From Naegleria gruberi (Eukaryota), in assembly GCA_000004985.1 (NCBI GenBank), contig GG738850.1: a DNA stretch of 64,000 nucleotides. One strand, given 5' to 3'. Below the pieces are notes generated by a model. The model worked only from the letters and a program-made list of their open reading frames with translations, was not told the origin of the DNA and searched no databases. Within the stretch, counting starts at the first letter, position 1; every line of letters starts with the position of its first letter. The position numbers and the translations under genes were made by a program. This document shows, in pieces, positions 7,975-63,610 of the stretch.

Positions 7975-8246
7975 CTTGCTCCAGTCATGCCTGCTTTGAG
8001 CATTAAGGTTTTCCCTCTCGAATCTACACTGAGCGAAAATGGAAGTATTTGTTTCATTTTGCTTCAGGTATCTTCAGGTATCTTCACTCGCAGAGTTAAA
8101 TTTGCTCAAATTAGGACTAATGAACCGTATATTCTTACAAATTTGGAATGGATGAACCCAACTCACCGCGTGATGTTGTTGGCTTTTGTTGATTGGGTCT
8201 ATTGACGATTAAAGAACCAACCAACACAATACCAAACTGAAAAACA
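7975..8246. promoter_or_regulatory. Short divergent intergenic region (272 bp) between two head-to-head NHL/EGF genes. It is presumably a bidirectional promoter and contains the direct repeat GTATCTTCAG/GTATCTTCAC at 8067-8086.
   Basis: Gene A starts at 7974 on the minus strand and the next gene starts at 8247 on the plus strand. The spacer is AT-rich and has no convincing ORF. Confidence 0.35.
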
Positions 8247-10858
8247 ATGAAACCATTAAGGTATGCTCGCTTAATAGCTGCACTTATTATAGCACTATTG
8301 TTTTTCACTCAATACCATGTTGATTCAGTGCAAGGAGCTACCACCACATGTTTTGGCCTAGCTAGCACCAATGCATTGGTATGTTCAGGTTACGGAAGAT
8401 GTTCAGCCACAGATGTGTGCACATGTAACGAGGGTTACTATGGTAATTCTTGCAACAAGCAATATAGAATTACATCTCGAACAACAGTATTTGGTAAGAA
8501 AGGAGAAATAGGTAGCTATTATAAAGGATTGATTTTTAGTAGTACAGGATATGGTATTTCAGATGTTGAAGGAGATGAATTTCTATACTATATTGATGAA
8601 TCTCGTGTCCGTAAATTGAACATGAACACTGGTATTTCTAGTAGTACTCGTATGGGCGTTCCAGATCCAGACCGTTCTTATGCCATCTCAAACATTAAAT
8701 GTGTGCAAAGAAAAGGGAAAAAATTCTGCTATGCCATTCAAGACATCTCCTCTGTGTCGGTTTTCATATTTGGTCCAGACAGTTCGATTATGTATAACAC
8801 ACCATTCCAATATTCAGTTACAGTTCAATACGATCCGGTTCGTGACTGTCTCTTTTTGTATAGTAGAACAACACTTTACCAACTCACAAACCTGGACAAT
8901 TTTAATGGAACTAACTGGTCAGTGTATATCAAATCAGTACCCACAGATTATAGTTGCTTTACTGTTACTACCAATGGTGATTTGCTTTTTTGTGATTCTA
9001 CTTATAAAAATCTTGTCAAACTCAAACAAGATGGTACCAAAACCACTCTGGCCACTGGAATGAACCATTATAAGGGAATGTACATTTCAAATTATAATGA
9101 AATATTCTGGTATGAAAAGGGATTTATGAAGAAATTTGATGGTACCACTTTCAAGACTGTAATGACTTTAGATTGTTCTGATTATGCAGAGTTTGGATTG
9201 GGAAGAGAAAACAACACATTTTACCAAATAGATAATAATGTGATTGAAAAACTAGTTTATGGATTGACTTGTGTTGATAATAGGTGGAAAGGTGATAATT
9301 GTGATGAAGTTGCTCTGTTTTGCAATTCTGTCCCATTCAATGACTCGAAAGTTTGCTCTGGACATGGTAGTTGTCAAACTGGAGAAGTGTGCAATTGTAA
9401 CTATGGTTATACTGGTACTGACTGCGAGTCACTCATAATTACATGTTTTGGAGCAAGGGCTAGTAATGGAGGTGTTTGTAGTGGTAGGGGAAAATGCATT
9501 GCAAATGACACTTGTGTTTGTAATGATGGGTATTATGGAAATAACTGTCATGTTGACACTTGTTTTAATATTTTAGGAAATAGTTCCAGTGTTTGCAGTG
9601 GTAATGGTTATTGCAGAGGAACAGATAATTGTATTTGTTATGATGGATTTGCAGGCCCACTATGTAATAATACAGTTAGTACAGGAATTACATCATTTAA
9701 AGTTTCAGATTTTAACTTTCCAATGCCTAGAGGAAAGTTTGTTTCAAACGAATCACATTTGATTTATCATGACGAAACAACCCTAGAAGTGCTGGCAATT
9801 TCTTTTCAAACCAAGGCTGTTAGTTTACTAGGTTACTTTACTCAATCAACAGTAGAAGAAATGCGCTATTACAATGGAATAGTCTATTTTATTGATAGTA
9901 CCAAGAGTTTGAGATTTCTTCCAGAGGGAGGATTTACCCAAAAAATTACTGGTTCTATTACTGGTGCTTCCTATTTGAAAACTGCAACAACGTATGGAAC
10001 TTTCACAGGTGAAATTCAAACCTTTCAAGTTTGTTCACAAGGAATTATATTTGTGGAGCAAAATACTGGTAAAATTTTTAAATTGGTCTTTGATTACAAA
10101 ACAGGAGAAACTCAATTTTTTCACATTGCTGGTAAAGGTTATACAGAATCTGGAAAATCATGGAGTTTTAGCAATGGTAATGGAAAGCCGTTAGATGCTA
10201 CACTTGGGTACATTAATTCTCTTCTCATCAATGACAATGGTGATTTATTTATGGTGGATACAACCAATCATGTTATACGTCAGTTTAACCTATTAGGAAC
10301 CTCAACAATTGCGACAACAGCTGGTGTAGGTACATCAAAGGGATATTCTGGAGATGGTAAGAGTGCAAAATCATCCTTATTGAGTTTAAATCTCAATTCC
10401 ACACTATTGCACTACAATGGTGCCTTAATGTTCTTTGATGGAGGAAATAACCTTATAAGAAAGGTACTGAATGGAATCTTGTACGATGTTGCAGGTAGAC
10501 AGACCCTTGGAGGAGCTGCAACAATTGGTTTGGACAATACCAAAACAAGTCTTTTACTCACCAATCTTTTCAAGACTTCTCAAGGAGATATTGTCTTTAA
10601 GGACACGACAGGAAAATACATGGCTTTGGATATTTCTTTGAAATGTGCTGAAGGATTTACTGGAAGTAAGTGTGATGAGCCATTGAAATGTGGTGGAAGA
10701 TCCTTCTTGGATCCAAATGTTTGTTCTAAAAGAGGTCCGTGTCTTTCTACAGGAGTATGTGATTGCCCTTATGGTTGGACTGGAGATAGTTGTGAATTTG
10801 CTATCTGTTTCAATGTTGCTGCTAATGATGCTTCAGTTTGTGGGGAAAGGGATCTTGT
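8247..10858 (+). CDS. Secreted EGF/NHL-repeat protein, truncated at its 3' end by the 50-N gap. It has a signal peptide, two tenascin-type EGF repeats, a beta-propeller-like region, five EGF repeats, an NHL-repeat region, and further EGF repeats.
   Basis: The ATG at 8247 opens MKPLRYARLIAALIIALLFFTQYHVDSVQG, a signal peptide. EGF units include CSGYGRCSATDVCTCNEGYYGNSC and CSGHGSCQTGEVCNCNYGYTGTDC. An NHL-like block reads IAGKGYTESGKSWSFSNGNGKPLDATLGYINSLLINDNGDLFMVDTTNHVIRQFN. The frame is open for 2.6 kb up to the gap. The TQTQ/PKPK continuation in the ORF track is just a translation of the hexamer repeat. Confidence 0.65.
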
Positions 10859-10908
10859 NNNNNNNNNNNNNNNNNNNNNNNNNNNNNNNNNNNNNNNNNN
10901 NNNNNNNN

Positions 10909-11230
10909 AAACCCAAACCCAAACCCAAACCCAAACCCAAACCCAAACCCAAACCCAAACCCAAACCCAAACCCAAACCCAAACCCAAACCCAAACCCAA
11001 ACCCAAACCCAAACCCAAACCCAAACCCAAACCCAAACCCAAACCCAAACCCAAACCCAAACCCAAACCCAAACCCAAACCCAAACCCAAACCCAAACCC
11101 AAACCCAAACCCAAACCCAAACCCAAACCCAAACCCAAACCCAAACCCAAACCCAAACCCAAACCTGACATGGGATCCAAACCCAAACTAAAAATAGAAT
11201 TCTTCTAAACCCAACGTTCAAACCCTAACC
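10909..11230. repeat. Telomere-like hexamer array (AAACCC)n, about 43 perfect copies (10909-11165). G-strand is TTTGGG. It is followed by degenerate copies (AAACCTGA..., AAACCCTAACCC).
   Basis: Perfect tandem AAACCC units are read directly in the sequence. The C-rich strand is on the plus strand. Confidence 0.9.
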
Positions 11231-11680: not shown

Positions 11681-11799
11681 TGAAAAGGTGGAAATCTTGA
11701 TAAAGGACCACCTATTGAAACTTTACCAACATGATGTAGATGATCTATAATGATATAGAATTCAATTTCATGTCCTAATAATCAGAAATGGTACCATGG
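11681..11799 (+). repeat. Copy 1 of a ~115-bp dispersed element 'R' (GAAATCTTGA[T/A]AAAGGACCACCTATTGAAACTTTACCAACAT...). It is about 90% identical to the copy at 14833-14946 and runs into N-gap 11800.
   Basis: Direct comparison of 11681-11799 with 14833-14946. The preceding unique stretch 11340-11680 also shares degenerate blocks with 14950-15400 (CTATAGGAAGA, TCCATTTGATGA, GATTTATTTTAACTTTCATAT). Confidence 0.8.
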
Positions 11800-14307
11800 N
11801 NNNNNNNNNNNNNNNNNNNNNNNNNNNNNNNNNNNNNNNNNNNNNNNNNNNNNNNNNNNNNNNNNNNNNNNNNNNNNNNNNNNNNNNNNNNNNNNNNNNN
11901 NNNNNNNNNNNNNNNNNNNNNNNNNNNNNNNNNNNNNNNNNNNNNNNNNNNNNNNNNNNNNNNNNNNNNNNNNNNNNNNNNNNNNNNNNNNNNNNNNNNN
12001 NNNNNNNNNNNNNNNNNNNNNNNNNNNNNNNNNNNNNNNNNNNNNNNNNNNNNNNNNNNNNNNNNNNNNNNNNNNNNNNNNNNNNNNNNNNNNNNNNNNN
12101 NNNNNNNNNNNNNNNNNNNNNNNNNNNNNNNNNNNNNNNNNNNNNNNNNNNNNNNNNNNNNNNNNNNNNNNNNNNNNNNNNNNNNNNNNNNNNNNNNNNN
12201 NNNNNNNNNNNNNNNNNNNNNNNNNNNNNNNNNNNNNNNNNNNNNNNNNNNNNNNNNNNNNNNNNNNNNNNNNNNNNNNNNNNNNNNNNNNNNNNNNNNN
12301 NNNNNNNNNNNNNNNNNNNNNNNNNNNNNNNNNNNNNNNNNNNNNNNNNNNNNNNNNNNNNNNNNNNNNNNNNNNNNNNNNNNNNNNNNNNNNNNNNNNN
12401 NNNNNNNNNNNNNNNNNNNNNNNNNNNNNNNNNNNNNNNNNNNNNNNNNNNNNNNNNNNNNNNNNNNNNNNNNNNNNNNNNNNNNNNNNNNNNNNNNNNN
12501 NNNNNNNNNNNNNNNNNNNNNNNNNNNNNNNNNNNNNNNNNNNNNNNNNNNNNNNNNNNNNNNNNNNNNNNNNNNNNNNNNNNNNNNNNNNNNNNNNNNN
12601 NNNNNNNNNNNNNNNNNNNNNNNNNNNNNNNNNNNNNNNNNNNNNNNNNNNNNNNNNNNNNNNNNNNNNNNNNNNNNNNNNNNNNNNNNNNNNNNNNNNN
12701 NNNNNNNNNNNNNNNNNNNNNNNNNNNNNNNNNNNNNNNNNNNNNNNNNNNNNNNNNNNNNNNNNNNNNNNNNNNNNNNNNNNNNNNNNNNNNNNNNNNN
12801 NNNNNNNNNNNNNNNNNNNNNNNNNNNNNNNNNNNNNNNNNNNNNNNNNNNNNNNNNNNNNNNNNNNNNNNNNNNNNNNNNNNNNNNNNNNNNNNNNNNN
12901 NNNNNNNNNNNNNNNNNNNNNNNNNNNNNNNNNNNNNNNNNNNNNNNNNNNNNNNNNNNNNNNNNNNNNNNNNNNNNNNNNNNNNNNNNNNNNNNNNNNN
13001 NNNNNNNNNNNNNNNNNNNNNNNNNNNNNNNNNNNNNNNNNNNNNNNNNNNNNNNNNNNNNNNNNNNNNNNNNNNNNNNNNNNNNNNNNNNNNNNNNNNN
13101 NNNNNNNNNNNNNNNNNNNNNNNNNNNNNNNNNNNNNNNNNNNNNNNNNNNNNNNNNNNNNNNNNNNNNNNNNNNNNNNNNNNNNNNNNNNNNNNNNNNN
13201 NNNNNNNNNNNNNNNNNNNNNNNNNNNNNNNNNNNNNNNNNNNNNNNNNNNNNNNNNNNNNNNNNNNNNNNNNNNNNNNNNNNNNNNNNNNNNNNNNNNN
13301 NNNNNNNNNNNNNNNNNNNNNNNNNNNNNNNNNNNNNNNNNNNNNNNNNNNNNNNNNNNNNNNNNNNNNNNNNNNNNNNNNNNNNNNNNNNNNNNNNNNN
13401 NNNNNNNNNNNNNNNNNNNNNNNNNNNNNNNNNNNNNNNNNNNNNNNNNNNNNNNNNNNNNNNNNNNNNNNNNNNNNNNNNNNNNNNNNNNNNNNNNNNN
13501 NNNNNNNNNNNNNNNNNNNNNNNNNNNNNNNNNNNNNNNNNNNNNNNNNNNNNNNNNNNNNNNNNNNNNNNNNNNNNNNNNNNNNNNNNNNNNNNNNNNN
13601 NNNNNNNNNNNNNNNNNNNNNNNNNNNNNNNNNNNNNNNNNNNNNNNNNNNNNNNNNNNNNNNNNNNNNNNNNNNNNNNNNNNNNNNNNNNNNNNNNNNN
13701 NNNNNNNNNNNNNNNNNNNNNNNNNNNNNNNNNNNNNNNNNNNNNNNNNNNNNNNNNNNNNNNNNNNNNNNNNNNNNNNNNNNNNNNNNNNNNNNNNNNN
13801 NNNNNNNNNNNNNNNNNNNNNNNNNNNNNNNNNNNNNNNNNNNNNNNNNNNNNNNNNNNNNNNNNNNNNNNNNNNNNNNNNNNNNNNNNNNNNNNNNNNN
13901 NNNNNNNNNNNNNNNNNNNNNNNNNNNNNNNNNNNNNNNNNNNNNNNNNNNNNNNNNNNNNNNNNNNNNNNNNNNNNNNNNNNNNNNNNNNNNNNNNNNN
14001 NNNNNNNNNNNNNNNNNNNNNNNNNNNNNNNNNNNNNNNNNNNNNNNNNNNNNNNNNNNNNNNNNNNNNNNNNNNNNNNNNNNNNNNNNNNNNNNNNNNN
14101 NNNNNNNNNNNNNNNNNNNNNNNNNNNNNNNNNNNNNNNNNNNNNNNNNNNNNNNNNNNNNNNNNNNNNNNNNNNNNNNNNNNNNNNNNNNNNNNNNNNN
14201 NNNNNNNNNNNNNNNNNNNNNNNNNNNNNNNNNNNNNNNNNNNNNNNNNNNNNNNNNNNNNNNNNNNNNNNNNNNNNNNNNNNNNNNNNNNNNNNNNNNN
14301 NNNNNNN

Positions 14308-14832
14308 AACCCAAACCCAAACCCAAACCCAACCCAAACCCAAACCCAAACCCAAACCCAAACCCAAACCCAAACCCAAACCCAAACCCAAACCCAAACC
14401 CAAACCCAAACCCAAACCCAAACCCAAACCCAAACCCAAACCCAAACCCAAACCCAAACCCAAACCCAAACCCAAACCCAAACCCAAACCCAAACCCAAA
14501 CCCAAACCCAAACCCAAACCCAAACCCAAACCCAAACCCAAACCCAAACCCAAACCCAAACCCAAACCCAAACCCAAACCCAAACCCAAACCCAAACCCA
14601 AACCCAAACCCAAACCCAAACCCAAACCCAAACCCAAACCCAAACCCAAACCCAAACCCAAACCCAAACCCAAACCCAAACCCAAACCCAAACCCAAACC
14701 CAAACCCAAACCCAAACCCAAACCCAAACCCAAACCCAAACCCAAACCCAAACCCAAACCCAAACCCAAACCCAAACCCAAACCCAAACCCAAACCCAAA
14801 CCCAACCCAAACCCAAACCCAAACCCAAACCT
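14308..14832. repeat. Second telomere-like array (AACCCA)n, about 87 copies, in the same orientation as the first. It contains occasional AACCC 5-mer variants and ends with the identical junction CCCAAACCTGA.
   Basis: Read directly from the sequence. Both arrays end ...AAACCCAAACCTGA. Confidence 0.9.
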
Positions 14833-14946
14833 GAAAGGATGAAATCTTGAAAAAGGACCACCTATTGAAACTTTACCAACATTATGTAGATGATCTATAA
14901 TGATGTAGAATTCAATTTCATATCATAAGAACAAGAAATGGAACTG
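14833..14946 (+). repeat. Copy 2 of element R, immediately abutting the second array.
   Basis: See copy 1. Confidence 0.8.
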
Positions 14947-15530
14947 TAGGAAGATAATGGTTGACTTTATAAGGTTGACTTTAAGGATTGACAGGTCAGA
15001 TCAAGTCTATCAAATACATCACTTCAATCAACAAAATATACATGAAAATGCTCCATTTGATGAGTAGAGATAGAATATTTGATTTATTTTAACTTTCATA
15101 TTCATGATTTCATCCCTTTCATACCATCTAGTCAACTATGGACATGGATGAATTTCTGGAAAATGACTACTCTACGAAACATCACCATCATGTTCTACAT
15201 CTCTAATAATATATATGGTTCAGTTTACAGACATTATGGTGAATATTCTATCATTCAGTAAGGTAAAGGGTGAAATTTCAAGGTTGTCTTGGAAGATCAG
15301 GAGGAAATGTTGAATATAGAGAACAACATCCTCAATCTACAAAATACATATCAATCGATTGGAAATCAATAGTAAATCTCGAAAATATAATTTATTTTAT
15401 GTTTTGAAATCTCTCCTTGACCTCTTTTAGTCAATTAAGACAATTAAGGATGACACTATAGGAAAAGTTACCAATCTCATAATAAATGATAATATCGTGT
15501 TCTACATCTCAAATAAAGTGGACTTTCTTC
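14947..15530. repeat. Degenerate satellite-like or subtelomere-like repeats. The internally repeated ~23-mer ATC[A/G]TGTTCTACATCTC[T/A]AATAA occurs at 15186 and 15495, and several blocks are shared with 11340-11680.
   Basis: Self-similarity was found by eye. There is no credible ORF. The 60-aa ORF at 15079-15261 and the EESPLYLRCRTRYYHLL tail at 15477-15530 lie inside these repeats. Confidence 0.55.
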
Positions 15531-17753
15531 ANNNNNNNNNNNNNNNNNNNNNNNNNNNNNNNNNNNNNNNNNNNNNNNNNNNNNNNNNNNNNNNNNNNNN
15601 NNNNNNNNNNNNNNNNNNNNNNNNNNNNNNNNNNNNNNNNNNNNNNNNNNNNNNNNNNNNNNNNNNNNNNNNNNNNNNNNNNNNNNNNNNNNNNNNNNNN
15701 NNNNNNNNNNNNNNNNNNNNNNNNNNNNNNNNNNNNNNNNNNNNNNNNNNNNNNNNNNNNNNNNNNNNNNNNNNNNNNNNNNNNNNNNNNNNNNNNNNNN
15801 NNNNNNNNNNNNNNNNNNNNNNNNNNNNNNNNNNNNNNNNNNNNNNNNNNNNNNNNNNNNNNNNNNNNNNNNNNNNNNNNNNNNNNNNNNNNNNNNNNNN
15901 NNNNNNNNNNNNNNNNNNNNNNNNNNNNNNNNNNNNNNNNNNNNNNNNNNNNNNNNNNNNNNNNNNNNNNNNNNNNNNNNNNNNNNNNNNNNNNNNNNNN
16001 NNNNNNNNNNNNNNNNNNNNNNNNNNNNNNNNNNNNNNNNNNNNNNNNNNNNNNNNNNNNNNNNNNNNNNNNNNNNNNNNNNNNNNNNNNNNNNNNNNNN
16101 NNNNNNNNNNNNNNNNNNNNNNNNNNNNNNNNNNNNNNNNNNNNNNNNNNNNNNNNNNNNNNNNNNNNNNNNNNNNNNNNNNNNNNNNNNNNNNNNNNNN
16201 NNNNNNNNNNNNNNNNNNNNNNNNNNNNNNNNNNNNNNNNNNNNNNNNNNNNNNNNNNNNNNNNNNNNNNNNNNNNNNNNNNNNNNNNNNNNNNNNNNNN
16301 NNNNNNNNNNNNNNNNNNNNNNNNNNNNNNNNNNNNNNNNNNNNNNNNNNNNNNNNNNNNNNNNNNNNNNNNNNNNNNNNNNNNNNNNNNNNNNNNNNNN
16401 NNNNNNNNNNNNNNNNNNNNNNNNNNNNNNNNNNNNNNNNNNNNNNNNNNNNNNNNNNNNNNNNNNNNNNNNNNNNNNNNNNNNNNNNNNNNNNNNNNNN
16501 NNNNNNNNNNNNNNNNNNNNNNNNNNNNNNNNNNNNNNNNNNNNNNNNNNNNNNNNNNNNNNNNNNNNNNNNNNNNNNNNNNNNNNNNNNNNNNNNNNNN
16601 NNNNNNNNNNNNNNNNNNNNNNNNNNNNNNNNNNNNNNNNNNNNNNNNNNNNNNNNNNNNNNNNNNNNNNNNNNNNNNNNNNNNNNNNNNNNNNNNNNNN
16701 NNNNNNNNNNNNNNNNNNNNNNNNNNNNNNNNNNNNNNNNNNNNNNNNNNNNNNNNNNNNNNNNNNNNNNNNNNNNNNNNNNNNNNNNNNNNNNNNNNNN
16801 NNNNNNNNNNNNNNNNNNNNNNNNNNNNNNNNNNNNNNNNNNNNNNNNNNNNNNNNNNNNNNNNNNNNNNNNNNNNNNNNNNNNNNNNNNNNNNNNNNNN
16901 NNNNNNNNNNNNNNNNNNNNNNNNNNNNNNNNNNNNNNNNNNNNNNNNNNNNNNNNNNNNNNNNNNNNNNNNNNNNNNNNNNNNNNNNNNNNNNNNNNNN
17001 NNNNNNNNNNNNNNNNNNNNNNNNNNNNNNNNNNNNNNNNNNNNNNNNNNNNNNNNNNNNNNNNNNNNNNNNNNNNNNNNNNNNNNNNNNNNNNNNNNNN
17101 NNNNNNNNNNNNNNNNNNNNNNNNNNNNNNNNNNNNNNNNNNNNNNNNNNNNNNNNNNNNNNNNNNNNNNNNNNNNNNNNNNNNNNNNNNNNNNNNNNNN
17201 NNNNNNNNNNNNNNNNNNNNNNNNNNNNNNNNNNNNNNNNNNNNNNNNNNNNNNNNNNNNNNNNNNNNNNNNNNNNNNNNNNNNNNNNNNNNNNNNNNNN
17301 NNNNNNNNNNNNNNNNNNNNNNNNNNNNNNNNNNNNNNNNNNNNNNNNNNNNNNNNNNNNNNNNNNNNNNNNNNNNNNNNNNNNNNNNNNNNNNNNNNNN
17401 NNNNNNNNNNNNNNNNNNNNNNNNNNNNNNNNNNNNNNNNNNNNNNNNNNNNNNNNNNNNNNNNNNNNNNNNNNNNNNNNNNNNNNNNNNNNNNNNNNNN
17501 NNNNNNNNNNNNNNNNNNNNNNNNNNNNNNNNNNNNNNNNNNNNNNNNNNNNNNNNNNNNNNNNNNNNNNNNNNNNNNNNNNNNNNNNNNNNNNNNNNNN
17601 NNNNNNNNNNNNNNNNNNNNNNNNNNNNNNNNNNNNNNNNNNNNNNNNNNNNNNNNNNNNNNNNNNNNNNNNNNNNNNNNNNNNNNNNNNNNNNNNNNNN
17701 NNNNNNNNNNNNNNNNNNNNNNNNNNNNNNNNNNNNNNNNNNNNNNNNNNNNN

Positions 17754-20543
17754 CCAAGCTTTCTTCAACAGATTTCCCTTTGGTATTTGTTGTGCTCTAT
17801 CAGTCATCCAAATTTGATAGTCCTGATGGTCTAAAGGTACTGTGGTGGTCTGGAGTGAGCATTGATGTTCTTCAAATATTCTATCATATTTCTCTCTTTC
17901 ACATAATTGTCTCAAAATGACTTCATTATTGTTCACCCGCACAGAATAATCCTTTTCATACTCCTTCTTCTTCTTGTTGCTCAACCTTTGTGGTTGACAA
18001 TACATAAAGGTATCTGGTATTACCGTTGAGAGAAATAATATTCTAAGTTTACGGAACAATACTTGAGCCAATAACTTATCTTCTTGTCCTATTTCTATTG
18101 TCGACCTAGGACCTTCAATGGGAGAGACAGCAAAGATATTCAACAATAAATTCTTATTATCTTCAATATCATCACCAAGCTCTTTCACAAATTTGAAGCC
18201 ACTAACTTTAAAGTGCTCTGTGTAGTCTCTGGTGTTGGAGAGAAGTGAATTATAGAAAGTATGTGTATGTCCACCACCCTTGCTGGAACCCTTTATAATG
18301 GTGTCTGCTTCATCAACATGACTACTTTCGAATGCTTGAGTTTCAAATACTTTAACATGACCAACTCTTTCTCGCAAGGAAACAATATGTTTCACCAATA
18401 TGTGAGCATACCATGATTTACCTGGAAACCCATGAACAGCTGCAACATAAACAGCCCAAAATTTGTTACCTGAGTCAAGAATTTGATTATTTGGTTTGTC
18501 ATAATCAATATTATGTAGGAAGTCGCGTAATGACTCCCATAAAACCTTTGTCTTCTCATTTTCGAAATGAGGAGACAATGTATTACTGTTGTCAAGAAGA
18601 ATATTACCTGTGTTGCCTAGAAGAAAGACTCTCACTTCATTCCATTCCTCATCTTCAACTTTGTTCAAATCTTCAAGACCTTTGATACCACAAACACACT
18701 CCCAAAATTCTTCCTTCTTCCTAACACCACATAAAGTTATTCTTAAAACATTTCACAAAGCCGTTCTTTTGCATGAAGGATACATATTATAATGTTGGAT
18801 GCAGGTAATCCAAGGATACAACCAAGATTTAAATTTGTTCTTGGCTTGTGGTTTTTACAACAGATTGGAAAAGAAATGTTGCAAAATGGACACCATGAAT
18901 CTTGTTTCACTCCAGGACAAACAACACCCAAGGCCTTTAAATCCATTGTCAAGAATACATCAATACTACAATGATACGAATCAATGGAAATACCATGTTT
19001 TCTGATTATTTCAATTTCATTCTTGAAATGATCAGCAATATGTGTCAATTCTGATTCGTCTCCCTTCCAGGCAGCCAAAGGAACACACACAACCCGAGAA
19101 TGACCCAACCCAAAACACTTACTGTTAATAACAGTAATGGTTAATGTTGTTAATTTAGAATTTGCAGCATAATCAAGATTTAGGGCAACTATTAAATCTT
19201 TAAAGTTCATGTCATCTTCCTTACACAATGATCGTTTCTTCTTCTTCATCCAACCAATCCACTTTTAATACATAACAACATACGGTAGGAAGAATGGAAT
19301 GGTATATGATGTTTCTATTTTCTCCAATTGATTTAAGTTTCACGTTAAATATATCTGCACACAATACATCTGTTGTCGATTGAGTTTGTTGTAAGGTTCC
19401 TGAGGGAAGTAAATCTTTCACTTTTCCTTCCAATCTGAATTCATCAACTGTGCCTTTAGAAACCAGTCTTCTATTTTTAACTAAGGTTTGTTTTAAGGCT
19501 ATTTCTGTTACCTTATTGGAGTGTGAAGGCTTTCGAACTTTCTTTTTTTTTACCTTTTTTGATTTTGGTTGAGCCAATTCTTTTTCTCTTTTTCTCTTTT
19601 GACTCGCTTCCCACTGTTTATCTTGTATTGAGCTAAGTTCATTATATTCTTTTTGAAACAATTTTTTCTCAGGTTTTTTTCTTGTCTCAGGTTGAATGGG
19701 TGCGGTTAATCCTTCTTCCTCCATACGTCTATTATCTAACAAACCCTTTCTTTTTAAAAGCCCCAAAAAGGAGTACAAATCTCGGAATCCCTCTGCCTTA
19801 CTAATTAAATCATGCCCAACAAGTTTTTGTTTCAAAATCTTCTTTCTTTTAAGGTTGGCACTTGAAGAAACATTTTCCTCATAATTGGTGAATTTGTAAG
19901 ATATTTTGTTTGTGACAATTGAATTATCAAGATTAACAAATCCAAAATGTTCTGAAATATCAATATAATATCTTTTTAATCCGTTTTCCTCAATTACTAT
20001 CCTATCTTTCTTTCCAATTCCATCATCATTGGGTATCTGAGTGGATTTGGAGTATTGTTCTGCAATTCTTTTTAGGAATTGTTGTTCTTTTGTTGGGTTT
20101 TTGGGTTCTTCTGTAGTTGTAGAAATCTCAACATCATTATTTTGGGAGGAATGATGACATGAATTTTGGGAGGAATGATGACATGAATATGTTTGTGGAT
20201 TAGGATAACTCATATTACCATTATTTTGAGAGGAGTAATGACATGAATTTTGAGAGGAGTGATAATATGAGTTAGGATAGATTGGTGAATTGTATGAATT
20301 TTGAAAGAAGGTTGGATGATATGAATTTTGAGAGGAGTGATGACATGAATATGTTTGTGAGTTGTAAAGTGGGACGGTGGAAAATGGTGGTATTATATAG
20401 TCCTGTGAAGCTTGAGGATAATTGTTGGTATGAATGAATGGAGAGTATTGTGAATGGTATTGTTGATGATTTTGGTGTTGGTAATGTGTATCTTCTATTG
20501 ATTCATCCAATGATAAACAATCATGCCAGTCACTTTCTGACAT
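17754..20543 (-). pseudogene. Large minus-strand gene of unknown function, read as three consecutive ORFs separated by two apparent single-nucleotide frameshifts at ~19221-19249 and ~18743-18760. Segments: 20543-19221, 19249-18743, and 18668-17754 running into N-gap. It is either a pseudogene or an assembly indel artefact, and the 3' end lies inside the gap. The N-terminus is Q/H/S/Y-rich and low-complexity with SCHHSSQNS repeats. This is followed by a Lys/Arg-rich block and a Cys/His cluster (H-x3-H ... C-x2-C), and then a region with an HGFPGKSWY motif and an HVDEAD motif.
   Basis: Both junctions keep two frames open across the overlap: ...DWLDEEEETIIV* versus MKKKKRSLCKEDD..., and ...HAKERLCEMF* versus ...NVLRITLCGVRKKEEFWECVCGIKGLEDLNKVEDEEW. 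A 1-nt indel at either junction would fuse them into one ORF of more than 900 aa. No family was recognised. GFPGKS is one residue short of a canonical Walker A motif. Confidence 0.4.
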
Positions 20544-20601
20544 TTCTTTTAAAAATTTGAAAACCGTTACATTTAAAAACTGTTATTTATTATTCAAATT
20601 T

Positions 20602-21285
20602 CTAGAAAAATGTAAATTCATCCTCATCTTCGTATTTAATCTTTGTGTCGTAGCTGAAATGCATTGTTATTTCATTTGATTCCGTATCCATAATAAAAGA
20701 AATACTGTTGACTTCCAATAAATATAGTGTTCTAATGTATGTATCATCTTCCATTTGTGTGGTTGAACTAATTACTTGACGTCCCCAGTTTTCAAAAATG
20801 TCTAACATTGGAAGAATAGATTGAAATCTATACCCAAAACATGGTACCTTGTATTTAATTCCATGTCTATTGATGGTTCTGTCTGAATGGAAAAATTTAG
20901 CACCTTCCATGGCTTCAAATATTACTTGGAAAACCTCAGTTTCTAAACAACCACAGCTAATGTAGTTTCTCTTATGAATGCCACCTAGTTTGAGTAATCT
21001 ATTAACCTTCACACGAGCACACTTGGAAAATAATTGGAAGGATCTAACTACAAATTGTTGTTCTTCATCACAAAGATCACCATAACCATGGGAGAGTGCT
21101 TGGATTTTAGGTAGGCCGTGTTCAATAATAATATCTTTAAAGTAAGTTTCTTCTTTACGTTGTTGTACAAGTTGGGCATTAACAGGTGTAGTGTTTGATG
21201 AAGAGTCAACGTCCATCATAGCCACATCGTCAATGGTACCTTCTTGAATGACAGTGGTGGAAGTATACTTGTATTGAGTGTTCAT
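20602..21285 (-). CDS. Hypothetical 227-aa protein, single exon, intact ORF.
   Basis: ATG at 21285 (MNTQYKYTSTTVIQEG...), TAA stop, moderate codon bias, no recognisable domain. Confidence 0.45.
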   Translation of the reverse strand: MNTQYKYTSTTVIQEGTIDDVAMMDVDSSSNTTPVNAQLVQQRKEETYFKDIIIEHGLPKIQALSHGYGDLCDEEQQFVVRSFQLFSKCARVKVNRLLKLGGIHKRNYISCGCLETEVFQVIFEAMEGAKFFHSDRTINRHGIKYKVPCFGYRFQSILPMLDIFENWGRQVISSTTQMEDDTYIRTLYLLEVNSISFIMDTESNEITMHFSYDTKIKYEDEDEFTFF

Positions 21286-21717
21286 TGTTTAGTTATTGTT
21301 TTTTGTTTTGTTTGTTGGTAGCCAGAGGGTAATGTTGCGAGACATTTTATAGGTTTTTTTTTTGTAAGAAAAATCATCATTTTCCACAGCCTCTCCTTTC
21401 GCAGGCCATTAAAAATGATGGTTGCTAAATTGTAGTGTGATGTAGGTGAGTTGTTATTGTATTTTTTTAAGATTCCTTAAATGAACCTTAATACAGTACT
21501 GACTCCAACTGACAAGAGTAAGTGCTTCCGCTCCTACAAAGAATATTCAATATTACCCACTTTATATTTAATAAATTATACAATATCTTGATAATTATAT
21601 GAACAATACATGATTTTTATTGTCGGAATCATCACTAAATCATGCTACCCATCCAGAAATATCAAAGGGTACATTTCAATATCACTCTATTGTATGAAAG
21701 TGTATAAAACTCACCCA

Positions 21718-24700
21718 AACCCCACCAACCCAAAACCTTCAAAGCGTATCCATCTATTATCCACCATGTGTACCAAACAATACTGACATTAGTTTTAAAT
21801 GGAGTATAACTCAATCAGACGCAGTAAGACCACTAAAAATTGTTACAGATATCAAAGGGACCTCTGTTGCTATACTAAAATTTCCTGATGCAGGATATTA
21901 TACCTATAAATTAACAGTTCAAGGAACAGTTGTGAAAGATCCAACTCTGACCTTTACTGAAACCTGCACTATCAAGACATTTCCAAGAGAACTATCCTTG
22001 AAAGCAAAAATTACAAGTATTTCATATAGAGATGCCATTGTTGGTATAACCAGTGAAGACCCTGATGCTGTACCAGCTGAGAAGGAGGAATGGAAATATT
22101 CATGTTTGACTGGAAATGGTGATGTTTGTGGTGATACTGTTGACACAATGTTGTCCAAAATGAATTCCCAACAATCAGAGATATCATTCCAAAGAACAAT
22201 GTTCAACCAAACTTTTGTTAACACCAACACCAAATTTTACATTTCAATCCAATACTCAAAAGGAATTAGAGTTGCCAAATCACAAGTTATAGTTCAGTTT
22301 TCTAATGCTCCAAATATAATTCCCCCAATTTTAACAAACATTTACAGACCAACTAAAAAACTAAGCCCAGGAGATCGTATCGACATTGTAAATCAGGTAT
22401 CTATTGGACAGAAAAAGGTGGCATGTGCAATTTATGATTCTTGGGGAAAAACTTTCAATATGAATTGGTATCTAGATGGTGAACAACGGGCTCGATGTGA
22501 GAGTATTAGTGCAACTGCAGAAGAAGGGAAAACATATAATTTTGAGTTTAGATTTGTTGATAATAATATAGAATATGTGGATATTACAACAGTGGTAGTG
22601 AATAGAGCTCCATCATGTACTTGTATTGTGACTCCAACGACAGGGTTTGCTATGGATACCATGATTACTATGACATGTCCTAACTGTCAAAATGAAGAAC
22701 AATCTTTAGAGATATCGTTTGGTTTTATGGATTGTAATCGTCCTGTCACATTAAAAAAGGAGGGAATTCATTCCAAACTCCTTTCCCGCTAGGTTGCGAT
22801 CCTGATTTATTCTTGAGTAATGAAGCTCAGGCTTTCATTAAGATAACGGACTTGAATACTGATATAAGCACAACTAAACAGTTTAAAATACAACTACACA
22901 ATCCAGTGGCTGAAACTCTCGCTGACATGTCAAATTTGGTTGACTTGTGGAAAAGAAAGAGAGAGTCACTTCCTGTAGGTGATAGTCGCAGAAATGTTTT
23001 CAGTAGTGCCTATATAAGCAGAGCAGTTAAGGCTATACTGAAAGTTATGGATCCAGCAGCTCAATTAACTAGATCAATAGGAAGTAGAAGACTTAGAACG
23101 TTGGAATGCAATGGACATGGTACATTGATAAACGGAACTTGTGTATGCAATAGTGGGTACTACACAAATGATTGTAAATACAATGCAGCTGACTTGGCAG
23201 CCATTAGAACAATGAAGCAAAACTTGTTCGATGATTTCATTCAAAGTCAACTTGAAAGAAACAGTACTTTTGACCCAATTTCTGAAGCTATCCTTACAAG
23301 CTCTGTCTCTGGTATTGATTCATTCTTGGCGGATTTGAACTATTTGACTAACTCTACTTTTGAGAGTTGTGTTTATTTGTTTGCATCTGTATGGGATGAG
23401 GCAATATCTGATCCAGAGTTGACAATCTCACAAGAAGTTGCACAATCAAGCGTTACCATTTTGGAACGTATTTATCAGTCCTCTTTTAAAACTGTGGCAC
23501 ACAAAACAATTATTGATTCATACTTTAAAAAGATTAGCCAAATTAGATTGAGAACTAATAACATTGGAGAAAAATTATCATTCTCCAATGTTACATTTAC
23601 TGATTCCTTTTCAATGAGAGAACTATCTTCGAGTTTAGATAATACCACCATTGTCTACTCTGATAAACAACCAAATTTACAAGTGAAATTTGCCGAATCA
23701 ATGGATACCAAATATGATCAGCAAATGTTCATATTCTACACTTTCGGTTTAATCCAAGATTTGAGTAGTATTAATCAAACGATTAGTAATATCAGTGGAC
23801 CTGAATATACTAACACGATGATTTCACAATCTGCCGTATTTTTGAAAGTCTACAATCAGAAATCAATTGCTGACTTGAATGATACCGATACCTCAATAGT
23901 GTATCAGATTCCACTTTCTGAAACGCTCCAAAAAACCAACTTCAAGCTTAGAAAATTAGTTCCTTCCACAGAGTACACTTATTCCTGTATCTCACTGGAT
24001 GAAATTGGAGAACAGCTCGACACTAATGTAACTTGCTCCATCTCATTCATTGTTGGAAATGATCAATTAGTACAATGCACATGTTCAGAACCAACCACCG
24101 TTATTGTTGTAAAGAGTTCAAGAATAATTTCAGTAGATGATGGAGTAATATATTGTGATGGAATTCAAAGCTCTGATTTGAAATCTTGTAATGGAAATGG
24201 TAATTGTACTGATAATGAAGTATGTCATTGTAGTCCAGGTTTTAATGGAACCTATTGCGAATTTGAAATTCCAATTAACAATTCAACTATGGATAATTCC
24301 ACAACTAGTGTTCAAAATTCAACCATTGATAATTCAACCACAGATTCAAATTCCACTTTTAACAATACTACAGATCCTGCTAGCAATAATACTATAATTT
24401 CTAATTCAAGTGATATCAATAATAATACCATGCAAAGTAATGCTACTGTTGGAAATAGTACTGTTGAGAATAACTCTACACTTGAGAATAATTCTACCAC
24501 TCTTGACAACTCTACTTTAAATAATTCAACTCTATATAATTCAACTACACTTGAAAATAATTCTACCTTGGATTATAATTCAACTCTAAATAATACCACT
24601 TTAAGTAATTCTACCTTGGAACAATTCTACCATAGAAAATAATTCTACACTTGACAACTCTACTCATGCTGAAAATACTACCTGGTCAAATAATACTCAA

Positions 24701-27226
24701 GTAGAAAACAACACTCTGCATTCAAATGATTCATTGAATTCCAGTAACAATACATCTGAAAATTCATCAATTCCCCAAATTCCATTAGAAATGGATCTTA
24801 TTATTAGCAAATCAGTGGCAGATTTTTGTGATCAAATCACATTCAATGCCATTGTGAAAAACAATAGGTATACTATTAATTTCATTTGGAGAAGCTCTGA
24901 ATCAAACTCATATCTGAAACAATTACTTCAATCAATTAGTACTGATTCTATTTCAATAGAAACTGGATTGTTGGGATCGGGTTCTTACAACATTAGTGTG
25001 AGTATTTCAGAAAGAACCCAACAAGTCACTCAATCCAAGACTATTTCTATAAGGAAAGTTCAACCAAAATTATTCATGGATGACATCACTTACGTTTCTA
25101 TTGGATCTGAAGTTGATGTCATGCCATCAATCACTCTTCCACATTGCTACCCTTATTCCAATTTGGTGTACAAGTATGAAATGAATACAAAGGAAGAATC
25201 TGTGGCAAATATTGACAAGATAGTTTTTGACGAAACTTTGGAAATTAAATGTTCAAAAGGAGGAGAAAGTTGCAATGATATTTCAACTCCAATAACTCCA
25301 ACCTATTCAACCATTCTTCAGGAAGGTGTTTACAACTTTACAGCCATATTCACCAAAGGATCAAGAAGCTCAATCAGTACCATTATTGTTACTGTCCAAA
25401 GTCCAAGCTTACCAAACAATGCATTTGTTTCCACATTATCATTGTCTAACACTGAAGATTTGAATAATGTTGATCCAAACAATGATCTAAAAGTTAGCTT
25501 TAGAACAAGTGAAAAGTTAACCAATCCAAAATACACTTGGACTTCTGACCTTCCTATCAGTGGAAATAGTGCAAGTTATCTCATCATTCCTAAATCATAT
25601 CTGGTAACAGGTGTTCAACATAACATTACTTTAGATATCAAAGATGGATCCAGATATTCCAAGACGACAATCTATTTCATTGTTAATTCACCACCTACTG
25701 TTGGAAGCTTTGCAATCACTCCTCAAGAAGGAAGTGCACTTGAAACTGTATTCACATTAGATGTACAAGAGGGATGGTTAGATTCAAATTTACCACTCAC
25801 TTTCAAATTCTTCTACCTGGATGAATATTCAAATACTTGGATTCCTCTCTCTGAAAGAACAGAGTCTAATGTTTTGAGTGTTTCATTACCTCCTGGTTAT
25901 GGAAATTATTCTACACTTAGAACTAAGGTTCATGTATATGATTCTATGGGTGTATATTCATATAAGGAAAGTTATGCAATTGTTAGAAAGCCAAATATCA
26001 TTTCTGACTCGATGATTTCAACTCTTAATGCTATCAACTCGTCCACTTCATCTCCTTCAGTGCTATCCACTGCCCTGAATGTTATAAGTACAGTTAGTGA
26101 CAAGACGGAAAAAGTTATTGGCATTACTAATAGTTTGGTTTCTAATTACGTAGAGAATGCCAATTTGGAAAATATCAATTCTGAAAAAGCCCTCTCCACA
26201 ATCTCTATCTATTCATATAGTGCATCTTGTTTACCATATTTGCAAGACTCGGTTACATCTGCTCTGATTTCAAAATTAGAAAGTTTTACTGAGCTTATTT
26301 CTGCAAACTCGTTTGATTCATTGGATGAGCAATACTTGGATTCAATCAAATCTACAACTGACAAGTTATATGACAAGGTTTTGTCTAAAACAAAAAGAAG
26401 CTTATCAACCAAGGAATTGATAGCTCTGGAAAATGTCTATGTAAACTTGGCAAGGGCCTATGTCAAGAGTTCCTTACCAGATATGAAAGGAAAATTAATT
26501 ACCTCAAACTCAATTTCAACCTATTCCAGAAAGATCAACACTGCCTCTGCTAAGAGTTCATTAATTACCAGTGAAATTGTAGACTCTAACAATACTATAT
26601 TATCATTAACTTCAAATATTGCTCAAAAACTTTCCCTTTCCTCTTTCACAATAATTGTCAAATCACAAAGTTCTCTTGTGAACAAGATTATTTCCAAAGT
26701 ATTGACCGTCTCCATACCAGAAGTACCAAATGGAATTATTTCCAACTCTCCAATAGGATCCCTCCTCATCAAACATTCCACAGTATCATCAAATAATATT
26801 TCGTGTGTTTGCTTCAACAGCATTTCCAATAGTTTTGAAAAGGATGTTGGTTGTTGTCGATTGACAACAGTTTCCTCTCGTTCCATTTCGTCCACCTCAT
26901 CCATTTACCTCTACAGAACTGCAATATTTGCACTGAGGGATGAAAACCATGGAACAATCATTACTGAAGAATCTATTCCAATCAAACCAAAACCAACAAT
27001 ATCCGTTGGTAGTGGAAGTGGAGATGGAGGAAATCATGTCATTAAACCACCAAAGCAAACAAGAACCAACAATAATAATCTATTTGGATTACTTTCACTT
27101 TTGGCCACTTTGTTTGTGGCAGTGGCCATAAGTGTTGCAGTGATTGTCCTCTGTGTGAGACAAAGAAAGTACAAGGCAATGCAAAATGCTGCTCCTGTTG
27201 ATCTTCCTATGCGTTCCGAGATCTGA
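21718..27226 (+). pseudogene. Gene B, a 5'-truncated paralogue of the REJ/PKD-like C-terminal part of gene A. It is read as three frames (21718-22790, 22738-24645, 24611-27226) because of two apparent 1-nt frameshifts, one at the A6 run 22752-22758 and one near 24610-24625. It consists of Ser/Thr-rich REJ-like modules, an N-glycosylation-rich NST repeat tract, then a single TM helix and a short basic tail, and ends with TGA.
   Basis: Paralogy to gene A: APSCTCIVTPTTGFAMDTMITMTCPNCQNEEQSLEISFGFMD versus PCPCSVSPSSGYAFDTLFTLQCSNCQNAANSIKITYGFID. A second match is RTLECNGHGTLINGTCVCNSGYYTNDCKYN versus TVCEHGGKVDDVSGKCICPSGYYKVDCSMS. After the first shift the alignment to gene A continues in the other frame (NSFQTPFPLG~QSYSTKLPST, AFIKITDLNTDISTTKQFKIQL~VFFKIIDTNSGAFIIQKSSVKVVL). 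The NST repeat continues in a +1 frame after ...SNSTLEQFYHRK*. The C-terminal TM reads LLSLLATLFVAVAISVAVIVLCV. Confidence 0.55.
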
Positions 27227-34914: not shown

Positions 34915-36406
34915 ATGATCGTCATTAGGAAACAAATGATTGATAAGGTAACCTACAGAAGGGAATATAAAGATCGATATATTCCCTTAATTGAATATTA
35001 TCGTAAGAAATATCATTTAAAGATTGAAGAGAATTGTTCCTTGCCTTCCTCCTTTGTGGCTTCAGAGAATGAGAAGAATATTGCTAAAGTTTTCATTAGA
35101 AAGAGACCTATGTTTGAGAATGAGTTTTCGAATAGACAATTTGATGTTGTAACATGCAAGAATGATGGAATTATTCTTTCATGAATGCAAGATTCATACA
35201 TTATTCAGACCTGAACTTTCTTATATTGAATCGGTCAATTTTTCCCTTCCATTGGGAAGTTTTCAATGAAGAGACAACAACTCACGACTTGTCCGAATCT
35301 TCAGTCAAATCTATTCTTTATAATCATGTTCTTTCATTGGAAAGTTTGGAACTGTTTTTTGCTTTGGACAAACTGGAAGTGGCAAAACATTTACAATGAG
35401 TGGAATGATCAACTTGTTTTCTGAGGATTTGTTTACACAATTACCTTCTTCCAAGAGAGTGACCATGACATATGTCGAGCTAATTGGTGAGTCAGTTTAT
35501 GATTTATTGAATGAACATAAGGAAGTGGAGGTGAGAGATGGTGGAGAGGGAGAATTTGTATTGTGTGAAAATGTTTGGGTTGATATTAAGGACAGTACAG
35601 AGTTGCAACGAAATTATCATTTGGCGGGAAGTTTGAGAGAAACTCATGCAACAAGAGTCAATTCAAACTCTTCACGTTCCCATTACATTTGTAGATTGTC
35701 AATTCTGGATCAAGACAATTCAGAATTTGCAAGATTGACATTTTGTGATTTGGCAGGTTCAGAAAGAAATATCGATTCTTTCTATCACAATTCAGAAAGA
35801 TTGAAGGAATCAGCAGCGATCAATTCCTCTCTGATGGCTCTCAAAGATGTCATGAGGGCACTTGTTCTCAAGAAACAAGGAACCAATGTCAGAATTCCTT
35901 ACAGAGCTAGTAAACTCACCAGAATTCTAAAAGATGGATTTGAAACATTGGAAAAACCAACTCAAACAATTCTAATTTCAACAATTTCTCCACAAGCTTG
36001 TGATGCAGAGCATACAATGAATACTTTGAAACATGTTTGTGCTATTGGAAATCATTCGTATCATGCTGAAAATGGGAAATTAATTTTCAGAGAAGTGATT
36101 TCAGAACCAAAGTTAGCACATTACAAAATTGAAGATCAATTAAAACCACTTACAAAAATGGATAGATCAGAAACCTTGGAATGGCTCAGTAAGGTTAGAG
36201 GTGGAATTTTAAAATCTGATTTGAAAAAGTTTCCAAGCAATATGGATGGGAAAATGTTAACTAAACAAGCAGAAAAAAGATTACAACAATTATTAGAAAG
36301 TGAAATATTGGGAAGTCAATTGAGACAAGAAATTATTGATTATACAAATAAGTGTAATCAGCAAAAGGTGGAACACATTGAAACTATTAAAAGAATAAAC
36401 AAATAA
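34915..36406 (+). CDS. Kinesin motor-domain protein. The 5' part (34915-35400) is broken by three apparent 1-nt frameshifts at T-runs (~35180, ~35248, ~35350). The 3' part (35396-36406) is intact. It is either a pseudogene or an indel artefact.
   Basis: Kinesin motifs appear across three frames: KVFIRKRPMFENEF, then HECKIHTLFRPELSYIESVNF, then FPFHWEVFNEETTTHDL, then GKFGTVFCFGQTGSGKTFTM (P-loop), NSNSSRSH (switch I) and FCDLAGSERN (switch II). Shift sites are ATTATTCTTTCATGA, AATTTTTCCC and GTTCTTTCATTGG. There is no room for GT-AG introns. Confidence 0.6.
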
Positions 36407-63560: not shown

Positions 63561-63610
63561 NNNNNNNNNNNNNNNNNNNNNNNNNNNNNNNNNNNNNNNN
63601 NNNNNNNNNN

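Follow-up and report, generated by a model that had tools for sequence, protein, structure and literature searches.

Clustered frame breaks in a Naegleria gruberi draft scaffold: a transposon copy, a surface-protein paralogue and a kinesin gene

Cut-and-paste DNA transposons of the CMCT clade (CACTA-Mirage-Chapaev-Transib; Yuan and Wessler, 2011; Kojima, 2025) are defined by a C(2)C/H(3-4)H signature and CA..TG termini (PMC12730594), and TET/JBP dioxygenases are carried by related fungal transposons (PMC12730594). The stretch considered here, referred to as the window, is a 64,000-nucleotide portion of contig GG738850.1 (assembly GCA_000004985.1) of Naegleria gruberi; six of its open reading frames (ORFs) match annotated proteins of strain NEG-M exactly, and the scaffold is 707,703 bp long. 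Seven frame breaks in the window fall in three loci: ORF2, the transposase gene, of a CMCT transposon (locus 1), a surface-protein gene copy termed gene B (locus 2), and a kinesin-13 gene. Two further kinds of described system are relevant to such breaks: the subtelomeres of yeast, Plasmodium and trypanosomes, in which pseudogenes and transposons build up, and Sanger drafts, in which annotators patch run-length errors with artificial micro-introns.

The three loci resemble each of these in part. As in subtelomeres, the transposon copy and a truncated surface-protein gene lie within about 13 kb of telomere-type repeats, and one N. fowleri copy of the transposon is capped directly by telomere repeat; the difference is that the arrays of the window stand inside the scaffold, flanked by gaps, and may be misplaced contigs rather than a true chromosome end. 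As with homopolymer errors in low-coverage Sanger drafts, the seven breaks are run-length sites, and the public kinesin model (P0013) skips and mis-frames residues exactly at the kinesin breaks, which would fit errors of this kind. The reading favoured here, with a probability of roughly 0.4 the most probable single combination, is that the lesions of loci 1 and 2 are real and the kinesin patch is erroneous. The clustering would then have a contextual cause with no single mechanism: loci 1 and 2 would be dispensable subtelomere-type DNA, their four breaks being genuine young slippage mutations in dead copies, and the three kinesin breaks would be base-calling or consensus errors of one thinly covered stretch of about 160 bp in an 8x Sanger draft.

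Seven frame breaks in three loci

The breaks were located in three-frame views, assigned exact coordinates and tested against homologues or a paralogue. The seven frame changes reported by the initial annotation are present in the sequence near the places it gave, with small corrections: its A6 run, put at 22752, lies at 22753-22758, and its T5 run, put at 35248, lies at 35239-35243. All seven are length changes in short base runs, as had been claimed for most of them; their description as single-nucleotide changes holds except at the second break of gene B, where it is uncertain. Homologues or the paralogue read in one frame at both ORF2 breaks, at the first break of gene B and through the kinesin stretch.

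The first break in ORF2 (19263-19266, minus strand) is an A4 run on the coding strand (GTATTAAAAGTGG) with one A extra (+1), over which homologues are continuous (CYVLQHQKWI / CYVLQHKKWIG). The second (18751-18753, minus strand) is a GAAATG that is one A short (-1); homologues imply GAAAATG, and over this break N. fowleri, which reads KERLCENVLRITL, and the metagenome contig L001 show KERLCEN/SVLR.

Gene B (21698-27226, plus strand) is a copy of a type I membrane protein gene with REJ, EGF and NNST repeats (Pfam), read in three successive frames (21698-22792, 22738-24642 and 24605-27226) that together comprise REJ and EGF domains, an NNST repeat tract, a transmembrane segment and a tail. Its first break (22753-22758, plus strand) is an A6 run one base short (-1), over which the intact paralogue, gene A, aligns in a single frame (66-1937, minus strand). 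The second (24616-24627, plus strand) is TTGGAACAATTC within the NNST repeats, where either a G is extra (+1) or AA has been lost (-2). Gene A (1-3620, minus strand) is open for 1206 codons to the window edge and extends more than 560 residues upstream of the start of its alignment with gene B, a part made up of EGF repeats and one additional module. No remnant of such an N-terminal part was found upstream of gene B, whose frame opens at 21698 right after a stop and has neither a methionine start nor a signal peptide. As assembled, gene B thus reads as a 5'-truncated, unannotated paralogue copy; no annotated self-match to the reconstructed gene was found, in a search that was probably swamped by NNST low-complexity words.

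The kinesin-13 (KIF2/24-like) gene (34915-36406, plus strand) has orthologues across Heterolobosea. Within it, a 164-bp patch (35174-35337, plus strand) combines three frame breaks with excess amino-acid divergence: the first break (35174-35182) is +1, the second (35239-35243, a T5 run) is also +1, and the third (35329-35337) is -1. After frame correction the kinesin can be aligned over the whole stretch with its orthologues, among them those of N. lovaniensis and Acrasis. From the first break to the third, its identity to orthologues is 31-46%, as against 54-62% in the flanking motor segments, and the orthologues among themselves are as conserved in the patch as elsewhere. To bridge the breaks, the public model P0013 (481 amino acids) reads about 22 residues out of frame (SFMNARFIHYSDLNFLILNRSI) and omits VLSIGK. 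Lesions and excess divergence do not extend beyond 160 bp, the remaining 1.3 kb being clean, and the probability of three breaks within 160 bp of this 1.49-kb gene is 0.03; because indels and excess substitutions are so confined within a conserved and otherwise clean gene, the patch is read as low-quality sequence and not as a sign of gene decay. The two identical contexts pointed out by the initial annotation are real: the 9-mer TTCTTTCAT is common to the first and third kinesin breaks (35174-35182 and 35329-35337), which account for two of its four plus-strand occurrences in the 64 kb, one site having an extra T and the other probably being one T short. This shared context could be a coincidence, a base-caller artefact or a slippage hotspot.

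The placement of the breaks is non-random, beyond chance, as had been proposed. In a simulation over 26 genes with 44.7 kb of coding sequence, seven events fall in three or fewer of the 26 genes with P = 0.0097, and three of seven fall inside 160 bp with P = 0.0012. Elsewhere in the window, changes of frame mark ordinary GTAAGT introns or separate genes.

A CMCT transposon family in Naegleria

Locus 1, previously listed as an unknown large gene, is not a host gene; it is ORF2, the transposase, of a cut-and-paste CMCT DNA transposon with a 5'-CACTACAA terminus and a RAG1/Transib-like fold. ORF2 lies on the minus strand in three frames. The N-terminal piece (19224-20543, frame a) opens with an ATG at 20543 and carries Q/H/S-rich repeats followed by a conserved region, and it aligns with the related loci L001 and L002 and the protein P0133. 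The middle piece (18746-19264, frame b) holds two catalytic Asp residues (LNLDYA and TMDLKA), the CPFC zinc motif and ILHAKER, and the C-terminal piece (17754-18752, frame c) holds YAHILVKH (H-x4-H) and the catalytic Glu (FES). Position 17754 is the right edge of an assembly gap (15532-17753), and the C-terminal piece runs into it; the 3' end of the gene falls inside the gap, and the last ~60 codons and the right terminus of the element are missing. The N-terminal ~170 residues of the transposase are of low complexity and poorly conserved among copies, and the N-terminal part of the ORF includes 24-bp tandem repeats (20139-20350, minus strand) that encode SCHHSSQN-type repeats.

ORF1 (20602-21285, minus strand) is intact, encodes 227 amino acids and is annotated as the hypothetical protein NAEGRDRAFT_63160. 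It is the conserved partner of ORF2, directly upstream and on the same strand, wherever the 5' part of the element is present (the window, L001, L002, L003 and L005), with a size of ~212-241 amino acids across these loci. Pfam scans of ORF1 and its relatives matched no family. A conserved FFHSD...(76 aa)...MHF pattern in ORF1 may correspond to the H-x-D...H iron site of 2-oxoglutarate dioxygenases, which it resembles in sequence. A probable left terminal inverted repeat (TIR), CACTACAATTT (21427-21437, minus strand), stands 142 bp upstream of ORF1 on the strand of the element. It differs from the N. fowleri TIR CACTACAACTT by one mismatch, and the 64 kb contain just one other match with at most one mismatch; by our own estimate, a TIR-like match at the predicted place and strand has P ~0.006.

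The motifs D (LNLD), D (TMDLKA), C-P-x-C, C[IV]LHxxER, SWYxHILxxH and E (FES) are conserved in the protein. CPFC lies 17 residues past the second Asp, and HILVKH is followed by the Glu at +20, both being conserved in six to eight relatives, so that the zinc motifs C-x2-C and H-x4-H sit between the second Asp and the Glu of a DDE transposase of ~930-980 amino acids. The DDE triad is placed on an RNase H-like fold, as is expected of a member of CMCT/CACTA. An AlphaFold2 (AF2) model of the core has b1-b2-b3-a1-b4 topology, and its best match in Foldseek is the Hermes transposase (E=1e-4); AF2 applied to P0002 and the window pieces gave no usable model (predicted local distance difference test, 31). 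The predicted three-dimensional structure is RAG1-core-like. With mouse RAG1 533-1007 as reference (100% identical to chain 4wwx_B), hhalign of an eight-sequence family profile places five motifs collinear with D600, D708, C727/C730, H937/H942 and E962 (P=0.007); an earlier hhalign run with a three-sequence profile picked the H-x4-H..E segment without significance (E=0.33). This sequence-based match to RAG1 is suggestive only. The fold match supports membership of the clade, not of Transib, because only RAG1 and Transib among CMCT members have solved structures.

A word-seeded search found only two relatives, N. fowleri FDP41_009403 and a protein on an ENA metagenome contig, and an exhaustive HMMER scan of 1.84 billion representatives found only seven, among them the intact 980-residue P0133, the N. 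gruberi fragment NAEGRDRAFT_66509 on another scaffold and, from different contigs, another two N. fowleri fragments. The metagenome loci L001 and L003 have flanks unrelated to each other, and the flanks of L001 and L002 are unrelated to those of the window copy. The three N. fowleri copies, on separate contigs, are 96-99% identical in DNA, and have 11-bp TIRs (CACTACAACTT...AAGTTGTAGTG) at their boundaries and a subterminal AAAATGATGG motif. TIRs of the CACTACAACTT type were not found in L001 or L003, and a TIR search in L003 found none. L001 contains a 22-nt inverted pair (159-180 / 7666-7687, 95% complementary) that encloses 7.5 kb comprising the two-gene unit and two other genes; as candidate termini of the element the pair was rejected, being absent from the window and the other loci.

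Compared with described CACTA/CMCT elements, and with CACTA/En-Spm in particular, the Naegleria element shares termini of the form 5'-CACTA...TAGTG-3' (CACTACAACTT in N. fowleri, CACTACAATTT in the window), which are close to the maize En/Spm TIR CACTACAAGAAAA. It shares also the subterminal AAAATGATGG motif, the presence of more than one ORF, and dispersed copies that are mostly defective. It differs in being compact, about 4 kb with two collinear ORFs, and in lacking a demonstrable target-site duplication, for which 2-5 bp would be expected: in L005, the only copy with both ends, the flanks GGT and TCG differ, and this copy is internally deleted and may be rearranged. The transposase also escapes the Pfam transposase families; in scans that included Transposase_21/24, DUF4218 and RAG1, no family was matched by any member at E cut-offs from 0.01 to 10. 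The host is a heterolobosean, and no published CMCT element was found for Heterolobosea. In contrast to Transib, RAG1 and the RAG1L of ProtoRAG, to which the core fold points, the transposase has no sequence-level match, neither to the RAG1 family in Pfam nor in searches of PDB sequences with a single sequence and with a profile (phmmer/hmmsearch), which returned nothing meaningful. The Transib/RSS (recombination signal sequence) heptamer is CACAATG/CACAGTG; the Naegleria termini (CACTACAA) are not of this kind and have only CAC in common with it, and a 5-bp target-site duplication, as expected of Transib, could not be demonstrated either. Finally, the partner of the transposase is the upstream same-strand ORF of 227 amino acids, not a RAG2-like kelch protein.

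Broken copies are the norm in the family. The single intact ORF2 is that of L003; L001 has an in-frame stop, L002 (N. fowleri VFQX01000068.1) a frameshift and deletions that remove CxxC and E, and L005 an internal deletion and frame changes, while L004 (N. fowleri VFQX01000077.1) breaks off near residue 633, where (CCCAAA)n follows immediately and forms the contig end. With the window copy, which has two frameshifts and has lost its 3' end in the gap, five of the six ORF2-carrying loci are broken, which raises the prior that the two ORF2 breaks of the window are real. In L004 the (CCCAAA)n array (1-60) is fused to the interior of the transposase gene, as though a chromosome had broken there and been healed by the addition of telomere repeats. 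L002 has a tandem duplication of the left part of the element (TIR, ORF1 and the start of ORF2; 5831-7391 and 7511-9094, with an N run between them) and two further 212-residue ORF1-like genes (15494-16132 and 16923-17561). The near-identity of the N. fowleri copies argues for recent activity, and Naegleria probably carries an undescribed, recently active CMCT lineage with CACTA termini, a fold closest to RAG1/Transib, a conserved ORF1 and a tendency to lie at or near telomeres.

Causes of the clustered breaks

The initial annotation placed the breaks next to a repeat domain. A repeat zone does exist, and it consists of two telomere-type (CCCAAA)n arrays together with assembly gaps: (AAACCC)x42.8 (10909-11165, plus strand), directly 3' of the 50-N gap at 10859-10908, and (AACCCA)x87.7 (14308-14831, plus strand), directly 3' of the gap at 11800-14307. 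For N. gruberi, TTTGGG has been published as the candidate telomere repeat (PMC3622300), and in both arrays the C-rich strand is oriented as at a left chromosome end. Bases 11684-11794 and 14834-14944 are 90% identical. The window has six N runs in all, which are gaps of the draft assembly (3622-5771, 7524-7918, 10859-10908, 11800-14307, 15532-17753 and 63561-63610). Either telomeric contigs were misplaced in a scaffold mis-join, or the arrays are interstitial telomere repeats, and their presence inside a reference scaffold probably flags a mis-join. Loci 1 and 2 lie 3-13 kb to the right of the arrays with several gaps nearby, and the kinesin gene lies ~20 kb from them, with intact annotated genes in between.

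The choice between genuine pseudogenisation beside repeats and locally poor sequence had been rightly framed, and both causes probably contribute; the letters by themselves cannot separate the two. At loci 1 and 2 the reading frame is disrupted relative to intact homologues, as in a pseudogene, and gene B has in addition lost its start codon, signal peptide and 5' region, with a zone of gaps and possible mis-scaffolding upstream. Taken separately, the transposon breaks are somewhat favoured as real, those of gene B are evenly balanced, and those of the kinesin gene are unlikely to be real. Several points weigh against the favoured combination of real lesions in loci 1 and 2 with an erroneous kinesin patch. 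The corrected genes are fully open (930 + 1843 + 496 codons) with zero nonsense codons, and the window transposase keeps every catalytic motif; on a rough estimate that assumes an indel:substitution ratio, neutral decay with 4-7 frameshifts should add about 1-8 stops, and the lack of any stop gained favours an indel-only error process for all seven breaks. Run-length miscounts are a typical error of low-quality Sanger sequence, locus 1 is only 1.0-1.5 kb from a contig end, and gene B may appear to lack its 5' end only through faulty assembly of the zone of gaps and mis-scaffolding.

These points lead to the explanation that ranks closely behind the favoured combination, a doubtful one in which all seven breaks are consensus errors of the draft: run lengths would have been miscounted in thin coverage, and all three genes would be intact in the organism. 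Every break is a run-length change, the 3,269 corrected codons include no in-frame stop, and the transposase motifs are all intact. Five gaps fall within 3.6-17.8 kb, contigs with telomere repeats seem to have been misplaced, excess substitutions accompany the indels in the kinesin patch, and the kinesin model had already needed patching by the annotators. Coverage is reportedly given as 8.6x in the N. gruberi genome paper; with this figure, Poisson sampling leaves about 0.16% of bases in single reads, or roughly one patch of ~100 bp per 64 kb. Against errors throughout, the breaks of loci 1 and 2 lie 1.0, 1.5, 5.0 and 6.9 kb from the nearest gap, beyond the usual low-quality contig end, five of the six transposon copies are broken, the window copy included, and gene B lacks a start codon, a signal peptide and an annotated protein.

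An improbable alternative, the pseudogene belt that was one of two readings offered by the initial annotation, is that all seven breaks are genuine and that the kinesin gene belongs with the others to a real belt of young pseudogenes. The non-random clustering, the subtelomere-like setting and the alteration of orthologue-conserved kinesin residues (VY to LS, KPL to KSI) are consistent with such a belt. Against its extension to the kinesin gene stand that gene's distance of ~20 kb from the arrays with intact annotated genes between, the conservation of its orthologue across Heterolobosea, and the limitation of lesions and divergence to 160 bp with the other 1.3 kb clean; nonsense codons are found nowhere. 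A patch of excess substitutions in a conserved, functionally annotated gene points instead to sequence error.

Functional recoding at some of the breaks, whether through programmed ribosomal frameshifting or through transcriptional slippage at A runs, is very improbable. Recoding could, for example, throttle transposase expression; the first break of gene B falls on A_AAA_AAG, phased like a classical -1 slippery heptamer, and needs a -1 shift, as does the second transposon break, at GAA_A. The loss of one base from an A7 run before a G nevertheless creates a slippery heptamer automatically, so that the motif is not independent evidence; L001, L002 and L003 are in frame at both transposon sites, and the needed shifts are of mixed sign inside single genes. 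We know of no precedent for recoding in eukaryotic DNA transposons or surface proteins, which also counts against it.

Short spliced-out introns, although N. gruberi has introns and genuine ones occur in the window (for example with a GTAAGT donor at ~50967, minus strand), are rejected as the cause because homologous residues run gap-free through every break and no GT...AG solution fits any of them, the frame-overlap zones of 18-55 nt having no in-phase GT...AG pair, such that any removal would delete conserved residues.

Neighbouring sequence and wider meaning

The gene at 8247, which had been cited as an uninterrupted control of 2.6 kb, is not a clean one: the listed ORF of 973 amino acids (8247-11168, plus strand) passes through the 50-N gap and the AAACCC array. 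Real coding sequence, with a signal peptide, EGF repeats and propeller-like repeats, is readable only to 10858, where the gap truncates its 3' end. This gene and gene A stand head-to-head with 273 bp between them. The idea that the transposon split a single gene, of which the 8247 gene and gene B would be the two parts, was not upheld: no supporting remnant was found in the sequence outside the gaps.

The frameshift cluster is essentially ordinary, being largely a matter of draft-genome quality and of dispensable subtelomere-type DNA. Such clusters are expected in a Sanger draft of 2010, and the consequence is for annotation quality: 22 residues of the public kinesin model are in the wrong frame, no model covers gene B, and ORF1 passes for an ordinary hypothetical protein. 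The main by-product is a compact two-ORF Naegleria transposon family whose termini are of the CACTA type and whose RAG1/Transib-like transposase goes undetected by Pfam. Its copies in the pathogen N. fowleri are nearly identical, and the family is associated with chromosome ends. In a genus with poor genetics it is a candidate tool, being possibly an active cut-and-paste element, and it offers one point of reference for how the RAG1/Transib/CACTA catalytic core evolved. If the element branches deep, its presence in Discoba would extend the RAG1/Transib-CACTA clade to a broader set of hosts than is now known, and it would serve as an outgroup for the origin of the RAG1-type catalytic core.

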